Positions 1 through 63,581 of a stretch of DNA of 64,000 bases are shown piece by piece. A program made the translations under genes and the position numbers. Under the pieces are notes generated by a model. It searched no databases. It had not been told where the DNA came from and saw nothing but the letters and a program-made list of their open reading frames with translations. This DNA comes from a phage, in the sequence record OZ413487.1, one strand, 5' to 3'. Numbering within the stretch: position 1 is the first letter of the stretch; every line of letters starts with the position of its first letter.

Positions 1-422
1 TCTGGACCCGATCTAAACACTCTTTACTTAATGCATACCAACAAAATGGCGGTGCATCGTTGTGTGACTTAGTTGGAATACTCATGCACCACCAGATGGT
101 GAAGCGTGGGTGGTACGATGAAGGTGTTCGTCGTATTATTTATTACCATAAATAACATTGTGGCTTCATAGAGTAATCTATGTCGAATAACCTCTTTAAC
201 TGCGGGAAGCCTAAACCTTATGGCAAGGTAATCCGCAACGAAGCGCTCAAAAGAGCGAACGCTCAGAGGCCATTCCGAAAGGAAGTAGACCAGCAAGTGC
301 GGTCGAAATGGGAGGATTCCTGTGGTTGCTTATCATAGGAATATGAGATGGTCCGATCCTACGTGAAAACGTATGGCTATGCACGTAATGGTGCGGGGTA
401 GCTTAACGACCTACCTGAACTA

Positions 423-60229: not shown

Positions 60230-60299
60230 ACCAGTAAAAACTTAAATATCTGTACTATAAGGATTCGTATGTTTTATGTTCGCCATGGAACGGATACTA

Positions 60300-60386
60300 T
60301 TAACTGTCCGTGATACGGACACTACTGTCCGTCACGCGGACACATCTGCCCGTAATACGGACACTAACTGTCCGTGATACGGACAC
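60300..60386. promoter_or_regulatory. array of four phased palindromic sites GTCCG-N5-CGGAC
   Basis: Sites at 60306, 60327, 60348, 60370 (gtccgtgatacggac x2, gtccgtcacgcggac, gcccgtaatacggac), spacing 21-22 bp. Confidence 0.6.
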
Positions 60387-60889
60387 ATAAAGAATATAAC
60401 TAAAATAACTAAATAATAAAAAATAAAAGATCTAGTACTTATGGTACTAAGTACATATACTTAACTTATGTAGAATATACTAGATCCTAAGTACCATGTT
60501 TTAAATTTATTACTTACTATGGGCAGTGTCGGCCCTTCATTGGCACTCGCCTACGAGGGGCGAGATGCCGTGCCTCCTTGGTGTACACAATAACAGAAGT
60601 GCATACATGCAGGTCTGTTAACATGTGTGGGAGCGAAGCGATAGCGCAGGCCAAAGGCCGAGCACTGCTGTGGACCACCGACGAAAGCTTGCCAGCGCCG
60701 TAAGGAGTCGGTTGAGAGTCTCCCGCGCGAGCTTGGATGAAGTTTATGTGTGGAAACTGACAAGAAGGTCCCTAAATCGCTCCACAGCCATGTAAACTAT
60801 ACCAAGTAAGGCAATCGCACCAGTTTGATAGAAAAGCTCGTTACAAAGCGATACAGTGAGTTTTTCTATAACTTGAAGAGGAGGCAGCT

Positions 60890-61743: not shown

Positions 61744-61986
61744 ATGTTTAAGGTTAAGCTCGTTTTTCGTTCCATGAATGAGGATTATTTAGAAGATGAA
61801 GGTGAATTTCGTGCACTGGATGATGCAATAGATTTTGCCAACGACTTAGCTTGTATGAATACAGGTTATGGGCTATGTTGTTGGGATGGTGGTGTTCAGA
61901 TCGGTGATAGCAAGATCTTCTACTTCTACCCTGAGCCTGATAACAAACAAATTAAGTATGTTTTATTTATTTGTGCTTTACAATGA
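61744..61986 (+). CDS. hypothetical protein
   Basis: 80 aa; promoter-like TTGACA-N17-TAAGAT at 61655. Confidence 0.45.
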   Translation: MFKVKLVFRSMNEDYLEDEGEFRALDDAIDFANDLACMNTGYGLCCWDGGVQIGDSKIFYFYPEPDNKQIKYVLFICALQ

Positions 61987-62275
61987 GGTTGTTTTCGTGT
62001 ATCATGATGAATATCCAATTTAAAGATGAATTTGATGGCTTTATCTCTGGATGCTTTGAAACAGGGTTCGGAGAAGACTGAGTTCCCCTTAGAGGGCTTG
62101 ATAGTGCACCACACTTAAAATGGTAGGGGCAGCCAGCACATGACGATGTGACCCCAGCCAACCTGTAACAAGGTCGAGCCGAAGCGCGGGTAATAGGCCT
62201 CTGGTAACCCACTTGTTGGGTCTTGCTGGCCCAGGACGCTGGACAAGTCGCAGGGAATACCACCCTGCGGCGAAC

Positions 62276-62304
62276 TTGACAATCAGTATTTGCTATGATA
62301 AAAT
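62276..62304 (+). promoter_or_regulatory. sigma70-like promoter
   Basis: TTGACA-N17-TAAAAT. Confidence 0.55.
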
Positions 62305-62332
62305 CCACCTATCACGTGATAATGGAGGAAAC

Positions 62333-62671
62333 ATGGCGGATACAACTAAAAAGCGTCGCCGTAGAGGCAGACCTCTGAAAGAGGAGTCCAACGCCATTCA
62401 GCTAGAGAAGAACATCCTTGATATGAAGGAATCTTTTATAGCGATGGTTCCAGAAGCTCACAAAGTTTTAAGAGAGCTGATGTTGGACCCGAAAACCAAA
62501 CAAAATATTCGTCAAAGCATTGCAGAGTATGTTCTTGATAAGGCAGACCGAATGCAGGAAGAATATGATGAGATGTTTGGTGAAGAGGAAGAGGTGGTAG
62601 TGGAAGAGGCTGAAAAACCAGCACCTTTTATGCCATTTACTACAGAAATACAGCCTGTTAGCAATAGCTAA
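62333..62671 (+). CDS. small DNA-binding-like protein with AT-hook motif
   Basis: ATG 62333 after GGAGGAA SD (track 62213); N-terminal KKRRRRGRP (RGRP AT-hook core), acidic C-terminus. Confidence 0.55.
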   Translation: MADTTKKRRRRGRPLKEESNAIQLEKNILDMKESFIAMVPEAHKVLRELMLDPKTKQNIRQSIAEYVLDKADRMQEEYDEMFGEEEEVVVEEAEKPAPFMPFTTEIQPVSNS

Positions 62672-62767: not shown

Positions 62768-62842
62768 GCCCTGTTAGCTTAGTGGATAAAGCAGCGGCCT
62801 TCTAAGCCGTTGACACTGGTTCGAGTCCAGTACGGGGTGCCA
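62768..62842 (+). tRNA. tRNA-Arg (anticodon TCT)
   Basis: Cloverleaf folded by hand: 7-bp acceptor (two G-U), loop CTTCTAA, T-loop TTCGAGT, encoded CCA. Confidence 0.7.
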
Positions 62843-62846
62843 AATT

Positions 62847-62933
62847 GGGGAGTTATCCCGTAGAGGTAGCGGTGTAGACTGTAAATCTATTGTCATTGCG
62901 ACTCGGGTGGTTCGACTCCACCACTCCCCACCA
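62847..62933 (+). tRNA. tRNA-Tyr (anticodon GTA), type II
   Basis: Acceptor ggggagt/actcccc, anticodon loop CTGTAAA, long variable arm, T-loop TTCGACT, CCA. Confidence 0.7.
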
Positions 62934-63047
62934 AATTTATATTTTTAGATGCATAAATAATACAGATAATGGCATTGATATTTATCGTCGTTTATACTAG
63001 TCACTAACTGCTCGAAAATCAGTGTCATTATCAGTATAATTTATAAA

Positions 63048-63138
63048 GGAGGGTAGGGAGCAATGGTGCTCAAGCGGTCTTGAAAACCGTCCCGTTGAGG
63101 ATGACTCGATGATGGTTCGATTCCATTACTCTCCGCCA
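63048..63138 (+). tRNA. tRNA-Ser (anticodon TGA), type II
   Basis: Acceptor ggagggt/actctcc, anticodon loop CTTGAAA, long variable arm, T-loop TTCGATT, CCA. Confidence 0.7.
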
Positions 63139-63236
63139 CATTGTTGACCTTGTAATTAAGCGAAAGCCGGAAGCAGAACCGGATTATCAAATGTTACAGT
63201 CGTCATCGCCGACTAGCAACATGGTCAACATGCTGA

Positions 63237-63335
63237 GCTAGGTAAGCCCTTTGGCAAGGGCGAGGATTTTTAATCCTGAAAATAGACGAGGTAGTCGTTG
63301 AATACATAGGTGGTTCGATTCCATCACCTAGCACC
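63237..63335 (+). tRNA. atypical tRNA-like element (possible tRNA-Lys TTT with long insertion, or pseudo-tRNA)
   Basis: Perfect 7-bp acceptor gctaggt/acctagc, good D-arm and T-arm (TTCGATT), but weak anticodon stem and about 30-nt insert before T-arm; no complete CCA. Confidence 0.3.
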
Positions 63336-63340
63336 TTTTT

Positions 63341-63416
63341 GCTGATGTAGCACAATCGGTAGTGCAATTGATTTGTAATCAATAGGTTGTAGGTTCAAAT
63401 CCTGCCATCAGCACCA
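63341..63416 (+). tRNA. tRNA-Thr (anticodon TGT)
   Basis: Acceptor gctgatg/catcagc, anticodon stem attga/tcaat, loop TTTGTAA, T-loop TTCAAAT, CCA. Confidence 0.8.
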
Positions 63417-63417
63417 A

Positions 63418-63492
63418 GGCCCTGTAGCTGGAAGGTTCAAGCAAGCGACTCATAATCGCCAGACGGTGGTTCAATTCCACCCAGGGCCACCA
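63418..63492 (+). tRNA. tRNA-Met (anticodon CAT; Met vs Ile2 not distinguishable)
   Basis: Acceptor ggccctg/cagggcc, loop CTCATAA, T-loop TTCAATT, CCA. Confidence 0.75.
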
Positions 63493-63503
63493 AATAGTAA
63501 ATA

Positions 63504-63581
63504 CTCCGCGTAGCTCAGCTTGGTAGAGCGCCTGATTTGGGATCAGGAGGTCGAGTGTTCGAATCACTTCGTGGAGACCAC
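63504..63581 (+). tRNA. tRNA-Pro (anticodon TGG)
   Basis: Acceptor ctccgcg/cgtggag, D-stem gctc/gagc, anticodon stem cctga/tcagg, loop TTTGGGA, T-loop TTCGAAT, CCA. Confidence 0.75.

Follow-up and report, generated by a model that had tools for sequence, protein, structure and literature searches.

Between the homologs of rV5 ORF75 and ORF74, at positions 62083-62271 (+ strand) of the window, i.e., the whole 64,000-nt stretch of record OZ413487.1 that we analysed, lies a structured element which on balance we take to be a member of an uncatalogued family of phage RNAs that would act as autonomous stable RNAs and bind a conserved host factor or ligand. Comparison with homologs in other phages establishes the conservation, strand, architecture and covariation of this element, while its mode of action is proposed from sequence comparison and genomic context.

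The window comes from a phage of the genus Vequintavirus (rV5-like), as the surrounding 1 kb has the same sequence (100% identity) in Escherichia phages rV5_ev168, JohannBauhin and others and shares 98.8% of its positions with rV5. In rV5, the counterpart of the interval lies between ORF75 and ORF74 with the tRNA cluster downstream, and promoter P74 is its sole annotation. An earlier note made from the sequence of the window had described positions 62000-62280 as a GC-rich, non-coding segment with paired stretches that ends at a consensus promoter just upstream of the tRNA cluster and might encode a small stable RNA. Composition and setting agree with this description, given that the GC content (100-nt windows) is 0.50-0.60 over 62050-62300 as compared to 0.27-0.43 in the flanks and that the interval contains only short ORFs (those compared are unconserved, with exception of a small ORF encoding a KDEFDGF stretch at 62005-62081). 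ARAGORN calls seven tRNAs in the window, all within 62768-63580, and none in 62000-62300. The landmarks of the locus are as follows:

61744-61986: homolog of ORF75, the 5' neighbour of the interval
61977-62005, + strand: promoter-like site TTTACA-N17-TATCAT (10/12 consensus positions), without annotation in rV5
62005-62081, + strand: small ORF MMNIQFKDEFDGFISGCFETGFGED of 25 aa, directly 5' of the RNA element
62083-62271, + strand: whole structured element of ~190 nt, corresponding to the GC-rich block and comprising a 5' accessory domain, the universal core and 3' accessory hairpins
62276-62304, + strand: downstream promoter TTGACA-N17-TAAAAT (11/12 consensus positions, extended -10 TG), which is P74 in rV5
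62333: ATG of the ORF74 homolog, the 3' neighbour of the interval
62768: start of the tRNA cluster

While the interval of the earlier note does contain the element, its boundaries had to be redrawn. The first ~80 nt (promoter-like site and small ORF) are replaced in the diverged relative L018, and only 62083-62271 is common to window-type loci and the diverged clade of L018, L058 and L064, with differing flanks beyond this span. At the 3' side, the limit is set by the promoter at 62276-62304 that serves the downstream ORF74 homolog, and the promoter-like site at 61977-62005 could drive the element itself. The KDEFDGF stretch of the small ORF is kept in L018, where an inserted promoter shortens the ORF to 8 aa, and some records annotate a hypothetical protein at 62005-62081. 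Within the tRNA cluster, a 99-nt tRNA-like gene (63237-63335, + strand) lacks annotation in rV5; ARAGORN gives it a 4-base anticodon (atcc) but assigns no amino acid to it, and it scores only 35.5 bits with the Rfam tRNA model. Further upstream in the window (60280-60390 and 60520-60800), four ~19-nt palindromic repeats (CTGTCCGTGATACGGACAC-like) downstream of a GntR-like ORF79 homolog resemble operator sites. After them come an AT-rich stretch and another non-coding block of high GC content, and an Rfam scan of this region at E<=5 gave nothing meaningful.

The element reaches far beyond rV5-like phages. A blastn search with the 331-nt interval retrieved, besides these, a 44-nt match (62154-62197) in several hundred T4-like phages that is 86-88% identical between the window phage and the T4-like phages, and some 600-1000 public phage genomes have the core (62157-62198, ~40 nt) in near-identical form (585-1043 of 50,697 phage records, varying with the query). 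Scanning IMG/VR and the JGI/ENA metagenomes for exact patterns, together with blastn searches using other variants, yielded 76 loci with 66 distinct flanks. The carriers comprise four T-even genera (Tequatro-, Mosig-, Karam- and Jiaodavirus), Vequintavirus, Pylasvirus (N4-like phages of the Schitoviridae), the unclassified 44-kb phage EcoPhCCP1 and six metagenomic lineages (L016, L019, L020, L038, L045 and L079). All classified carriers belong to virulent phage groups, and Seunavirus relatives are devoid of the motif. No blastn match was found in 5,426 E. coli genomes that would indicate an origin in this host, and the core pattern had four matches in 185,579 bacterial and archaeal genomes, all without the rest of the motif and about as many as expected by chance for 19 fixed bases (about four), so these genome searches revealed no bacterial or prophage copy. 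We note that eighteen "Campylobacter phage" records (MG065644-MG065690, host C. jejuni) are 96-99.8% identical to E. coli rV5-like phages at this locus; judging from their sequences, the host labels are probably wrong or the result of contamination.

Each locus has a single copy of the motif with two exceptions. In Klebsiella phage PKO111 (L082), two altered copies (1217-1248 and 1739-1772) flank the ipII gene, of which the first has GCC changed to GCG and the second joins a T4-type 5' half to a Karam-type 3' half and has a P2 helix that is unable to pair; the sequences of these copies suggest recombination within the element. In L040, a Karamvirus-like IMG/VR contig, a degenerate second copy was spotted by eye in tandem ~60 nt downstream of the motif (...CCCGCCTGTAATAAGGC...).

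All 66 variants follow one shared plan, which runs from P1 over the 5' strand of P2, P3, the junction J3/4 and P4 to the 3' strand of P2 and a pseudoknot (PK) formed by the tail. In the window, its parts are the following, with the universal part of the motif spanning about 75-80 nt (62126-62205):

62083-62125, + strand: Vequintavirus-specific 5' accessory domain with a CCCC-UUAGA-GGG(G) hairpin, CUUGAUAGUGC and an ACCA...UGGU hairpin
62126-62155, + strand: P1, formed by GGGG (62126-62129) with CCCC (62152-62155) and enclosing PKa and the inner hairpin P1.1
62132-62136, + strand: PKa (GCCAG), the 5' pseudoknot strand in the P1 loop, pairing with CUGGU at 62201-62205
62137-62150, + strand: P1.1 inside P1, formed by CACAU (62137-62141), a GACG loop and AUGUG (62146-62150)
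62157-62160, + strand: 5' strand of P2 (G-CCA), pairing with 62194-62198
62161-62174, + strand: P3 hairpin ACCU-GUAACA-AGGU (loop consensus GUARNA), with an invariant stem predicted by RNAalifold
62175-62177, + strand: junction J3/4, CGA in the window and CAA, CGG or CUA in others (alignment A2)
62178-62193, + strand: P4 hairpin GCC-loop-GGU (62178-62191) followed by AA, with an invariant stem predicted by RNAalifold
62194-62198, + strand: 3' strand of P2, U-(A bulge)-GG-C, pairing with 62157-62160
62201-62205, + strand: PKb (CUGGU), the 3' pseudoknot strand, 2 nt after the 3' strand of P2 as in other lineages
62207-62271, + strand: 3' accessory hairpins ACCCA/UGGGU (62207-62221), CCAG-GACG-CUGG (62231-62242) and GUCGCAGGG/CCCUGCGGC (62247-62271)

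The accessory parts are specific to Vequintavirus. The 5' domain is nearly invariant over rV5-like loci and absent in T4-like, Pylas-like and other lineages, and a module related to it recurs 3' of the core in L018. The 3' hairpins, read from the sequence and its minimum free energy (MFE) fold, were not found in other lineages, and the first of them is deleted in L073. Across lineages, P1 is a variable hairpin (with the inner P1.1 in some lineages only) that is spaced 0-2 nt from P2 (1 nt in the window), the 5' strand of P2 is N0-N3 and its 3' strand N1'-(bulged G)-N3'N4'N5', J3/4 is CNR, P4 is GCC-N7-GGU followed by AA, and the tail 0-2 nt past P2 pairs with the 5' part of the P1 loop. The window matches the resulting core consensus, N4-ACCU-GUARNA-AGGU-CNR-GCC-N7-GGUAA-N-(G)-N3 closed by the covarying P2, with two deviations: the P4 region has one extra G (GCGGGUAA instead of GCGGUAA, a single-base insertion in the covariance-model alignment), and the P2 bulge is an A in place of the G seen in all other homologs examined. 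A covariance model (R1) built from 39 other cores with the window left out finds 62154-62204 over the full model length with 50.4 bits and an E value of 8.8e-16, and this copy is the only one in the window (next match at E 0.7).

Covariation supports three helices, P1, P2 and PK. For P2 (39 distinct cores in the gapless alignment A2), pairing at the three inner pairs is kept in 97-100% of sequences, with both sides changed in 5, 13 and 13 of them and 2-5 pair types each, and the covariation score of 0.269 compares to 0.064 in shuffles (0/500 reach 0.269) and to at most 0.05 in controls with slid partners. Among the 17 type-B T-even sequences, the central PK pairs 16-112 (CG10/AU3/UA3/GC1) and 17-111 (GC13/CG4) as well as the P1 pair 10-57 (GC11/CG5/AU1) are 100% paired, as is P1 in ten Pylas-like sequences, where three of its five pairs are changed on both sides. 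Because MAFFT fails on the variable P1 loops, a cross-lineage alignment of P1 was abandoned in favor of lineage-specific alignments and a permutation test over 20 sub-lineages, in which upstream regions were matched better by the P1b and tail segments of the same sequence than by segments from other lineages (9/20000 permutations for P1, 18/20000 for PK).

The underlying substitutions are easily seen by comparing lineages, since the same P1-P2-PK spacing is built from different sequences in the window and elsewhere. P1 is GGGAA/UUCCC in T4, GAAUG/CAUUC or GAGUG/CACUC in Pylas-like phages, and AAAGG/CCUUU, AAAGC/GCUUU or AAAGA/UCUUU in type-B T-evens. The PK equivalents are GUGAGGG/CCCUUAC (L018), UGAGG/CCUCA (L064), CUCCGG/CCGGAG (L027), AAACCA/UGGUUU (L019), CGGA/UCCG (L005) and, in T-evens, CCG/CGG, CAC/GUG, CGC/GCG or CUG/CAG. 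Even the two Vequintavirus clades keep every helix though the sequences of P1, P1.1 and PK differ completely: L018 has GGAAC/GUUCC where the window has GGGG/CCCC in P1, and CUACG-GACG-CGUAG where the window has CACAU/AUGUG in P1.1, with the GACG loop common to both. Retention of the upstream hairpin through compensatory changes was also seen in an early alignment. In Pylas-like phages, we had considered that AGUGCUCUU...AAGAGCAUU might form a closing helix of the motif, but compensatory changes in L005 and L017 pair each 3' element with the next downstream 5' element, and by this sequence evidence the two elements belong to neighbouring hairpins.

The stems of P3 (ACCU-GUARNA-AGGU) and P4 (GCC-N7-GGU) are invariant in all 39 distinct cores, which makes covariation uninformative on their pairing, and RNAalifold predicts both on energy alone. 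As the conserved core served to find all homologs, ascertainment accounts for part of its invariance; when the P3 3' strand was left unconstrained in a scan, no P3 variants came up, and the sole additional locus (L080) lacks a complementary 5' strand. The paired segments of the earlier note are thus borne out by comparative covariation and not by the single sequence, given that the MFE z-score of the window sequence is -1.2 for the + strand and -0.4 for the - strand and that single-sequence z-scores overall (-1.2, -0.4 and -0.25) indicate a folding energy that is not unusual compared to shuffles and hence cannot establish pairing.

These data also bear on whether the motif might act as DNA, e.g., as a hotspot of recombination and shuffling or as a protein-binding site that has spread horizontally and has no function as RNA. 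Near-identical sequences in unrelated phage families do imply horizontal transfer, and the location at gene boundaries in variable regions as well as the two copies around ipII in PKO111, one of them apparently chimeric, fit with such a module. Yet three helices are kept by compensatory changes, the G-U pairs of P2 and P4 are compatible with the + strand only, which is not expected for a site in duplex DNA, and the orientation of the element equals the direction of local transcription in all lineages examined. We therefore regard a purely DNA-level role as very improbable.

Searches for known RNA families were negative throughout. At gathering thresholds, Rfam 15 matched nothing in the region and, at E<=10 on 61900-62400, it gave only chance-level snoRNA and sRNA matches at the edges (12.7-17.1 bits, E 2.8-8.6), and scans at E<=5 of seven homologous loci including T4 returned nothing that overlaps the motif. 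The earlier note had thought of tmRNA, RNase P RNA, a group I intron or a tRNA-like molecule, and all of these are excluded within the reach of covariance models: no match to the tRNA clan (E<=10) or to RF00028 in 61900-62400, no RNase P RNA at E<=10 in the region or at gathering threshold in the whole window, no tmRNA in the window region by ARAGORN or Rfam, and no ARAGORN call in 62000-62300. Its more general idea of a small RNA of the tRNA region holds up with regard to a structured RNA, considering the three covarying helices, the neighbouring tRNA clusters and the element's own promoter or terminator in some lineages. The sole match to the group I catalytic intron model (RF00028, 64.7 bits, E 4e-14, full model length) in the window is found elsewhere, at 140-375 (+ strand). 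Separately, the terminase large subunit of rV5 is annotated as three joined pieces.

Weak tmRNA-like matches in L008, a Pylas-like IMG/VR contig of 46.7 kb, fall outside of the motif. At 1721-2321, this contig has a promoter, then a tmRNA-like tag frame GCAAACGAAGAAATGTATCTGGCAGTAGCCTAA (ANEEMYLAVA*) and, ~400 nt downstream, a tRNA-like domain (GGCUGAUU...GGUUCGACUCC...CCACCA) with the motif and long covarying hairpins in between. ARAGORN calls no tmRNA here and Rfam tmRNA_permuted reaches only E 0.07, but from its sequence the arrangement may be an unusual phage tmRNA.

Specific mimicry of known RNAs was considered as well. The motif shares its genomic neighbourhood with tRNA and tmRNA genes and has GUA, the Tyr anticodon triplet, in the P3 loop, but it lacks a T-loop, a 7-nt anticodon loop, an acceptor stem and a CCA end; a mimic of the tRNA-Tyr anticodon arm was rejected since CUGUAA is present but a 5-bp stem with 7-nt loop is impossible. 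We take GCGGUAAU to be the sequence of the 16S 530 loop and GUAAUA that of the 23S H44 loop, and GCAGCCA presumably resembles 4.5S/GAC sequence, but the idea of rRNA mimicry was given no weight because the longer similarities occur in the window variant only and chance alone would be expected to give an 8-mer match to 4.5 kb of rRNA.

The motif folds compactly into a pseudoknot of ~75 nt, has numerous invariant nucleotides and occurs in varied intergenic contexts of lytic phages, often inside tRNA operons. This would be in line with a ribozyme that cleaves itself or with a signal dedicated to cutting polycistronic precursors of tRNA or mRNA, and the order of helix strands (A B [C C'] A' {junction} B') is, by our reading, that of the nested double pseudoknot of HDV-like ribozymes. 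No match to the hammerhead, twister, twister-sister, pistol, hatchet or HDV models was obtained at E<=10, and a hammerhead-like reading of the T-even P1 insert mismatches the consensus. Unlike HDV-like ribozymes, the motif is devoid of the cleavage-site G-U (the outermost 5' base of P1 is a G paired with C and not U, as read in the window, T4 and L005) and of P3/L3/P1.1 elements (minimal Pylas-like forms have only 7 nt at the place of P3/L3, again by reading), and its conserved nucleotides occupy the place of the dispensable P4 of HDV. With about 30 invariant nucleotides, the motif also goes far beyond the needs of known small ribozymes. Like a purely DNA-level role, such a function is less likely, and we consider it improbable.

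Full-text searches of the openly accessible literature turned up neither the core sequence nor an intergenic RNA between denV and vs.8 or in rV5. We class the motif as a new family of the kind of the orphan structured RNAs of phage tRNA regions, with an earlier mention in subscription-only papers or uncurated motif lists being possible. Two known groups of this kind come to mind. Species 1 and 2 RNAs of phage T4 (rnaC/rnaD) are small, stable, structured non-coding RNAs encoded together with the phage tRNA genes. The motif is likewise non-coding, structured and of the tRNA-region type, but in T4 it sits between denV and vs.8 outside of the tRNA cluster and, unlike species 1 and 2, it is common to unrelated phage families. 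GOLLD and ROOL are orphan structured RNAs of 500-800 nt associated with phages or prophages and found near tRNA genes. Compared to these, the motif has a core of about 75 nt and far higher sequence invariance, and it matches no family in Rfam.

The genomic contexts of the element differ greatly between lineages, though it is often located in or beside tRNA clusters. tRNA genes lie within about 600 nt in Vequintavirus, in Pylasvirus and its relatives and in L019, and T-arm-like sequences were seen by eye to flank the element in L079. Seunavirus relatives have tRNAs and tRNA-like sequence upstream of their ORF74 homolog, i.e., at the place of the element in Vequintavirus, and in GAP31 this homolog lies inside the tRNA array. 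In Pylas-like phages, the element is found in a long non-coding stretch between covarying hairpins with tRNAs upstream or downstream and, where a tmRNA-like tag ORF is found on one side of the motif, a tRNA-like domain and tRNAs on the other. Klebsiella phage Pylas encodes a tRNA with CTA anticodon of the amber-suppressor type (ARAGORN "Pyl"), and a tRNA of KpCHEMY26 is annotated as "tRNA-Leu-CTA"; these CTA-anticodon loci are L017 9535-9610 and L025 105-192.

Transcription signals around the element are similarly diverse. A consensus promoter separates it from ORF74 in both Vequintavirus clades, and L018 has another consensus promoter (TTGACA-N17-TATACT), stronger than the promoter-like site of the window, whose end is about 10 nt upstream of the conserved 5' domain. 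Since Vequintavirus has no terminator separating element and ORF74, transcripts from an upstream promoter would also carry the element as a 5' leader. The element of L019 follows a tRNA-Pro with no promoter in between and is itself followed by a strong intrinsic terminator about 20-25 nt past the 3' tail. Another strong intrinsic terminator is found in L045 ~60 nt past the core pattern match (~45 nt past the tail), with a weak promoter-like site on the other side, and a terminator 3' of the element was seen by eye in L020. The genes 3' of the element are unrelated across lineages (a P-loop protein, PHROG 3330, tRNAs or nothing), and flanking proteins had no informative Pfam or PHROG assignment.

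The T-even phages stand out from this pattern. In T4, denV and vs.8 are separated by a spacer of ~140 nt that contains the core on its transcribed strand, and the element is directly upstream of vs.8 at all T-even loci examined in four genera, even where the upstream gene differs. There is no promoter or terminator between element and vs.8, and a conserved GCCAnGGAAUGGC hairpin is located near the ribosome-binding site. The vs.8 proteins are as little as 37% identical, while the RNA core examined in these genera is invariant. A linkage of this sort with no intervening signal is the pattern that would be expected of a cis-regulator and counts against autonomy, so that a leader controlling the next gene, i.e., vs.8 in T-evens and the ORF74 homolog in Vequintavirus, as riboswitch aptamer or protein-binding operator is a serious rival at least in T-evens. 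Its fold would fit as well, because riboswitch aptamers with a three-way junction and pseudoknot likewise combine variable, covarying outer helices with an invariant core of junction and loops and a long-range pseudoknot, and the order of element, terminator and ORF in L019 could be read in the same way.

What speaks against a general role in cis is that the downstream genes share nothing across lineages. The P-loop protein vs.8 was detected by tblastn in T-even-like genomes only and is thus rejected as a universal protein partner, and the motif has neither the coherent set of downstream genes nor the expression platform of a riboswitch. In several lineages it is cut off from the next gene by a promoter, as in both Vequintavirus clades, or followed by a terminator, as in L045 and apparently L020. 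We saw no alternative pairing of the core with the L019 terminator or with any ribosome-binding site, and Rfam 15 gave no match to a riboswitch or leader. Taken over the whole family, we hold the cis-regulatory explanation to be doubtful, though one to be reckoned with.

Promoters, terminators, the hairpin setting of Pylas-like phages and the unrelated downstream genes instead favor an autonomous stable RNA. In its fold, P1 is directly followed by P2, which with its conserved bulged purine closes a three-way junction holding P3 and P4, and the tail after P2 folds back on the P1 loop as a pseudoknot. Arranged in this way, P1, P2 and PK can stack compactly and expose about 30 invariant nucleotides. 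We infer that the RNA is made within early or tRNA-region transcripts, with its own promoter in Vequintavirus and elsewhere at the ends of tRNA operons or between processing hairpins, and that it acts as a stable RNA of its own rather than as leader of the next gene, where the context favors co-expression and co-processing with other stable RNAs. The invariant surface would then bind a factor common to enterobacterial hosts, and recognition on the host's side is proposed because the carrier phages share little else. Candidate partners are a protein related to translation or tRNA, a defence nuclease that targets RNA and for which the element would be a decoy, or a small molecule.

If the element is functional, as its covariation suggests, T4 and many therapeutic or model coliphages (rV5-like, T4-like and N4-like Klebsiella phages) would share one RNA device, with a core kept almost base-for-base while neighbouring proteins have diverged to less than 40% identity. 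Conservation of this kind across unrelated lytic phages that share only their host group points to a target in the host. The element is small (about 75 nt) and tractable in T4, making the question directly testable, and annotators gain a concrete model for a region that is now left blank or mis-called as tiny hypothetical ORFs. It is a more tentative suggestion, made from sequence comparison, that T4 and about a thousand lytic enterobacterial phages carry a new class of functional RNA whose invariant pseudoknotted junction would specifically bind a translation- or tRNA-related component of the host, an RNA-targeting defence enzyme (as a decoy or anti-defence element) or a signalling metabolite. 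If true, this would reveal a widespread RNA-based device for host takeover or counter-defence that has been overlooked even in T4.
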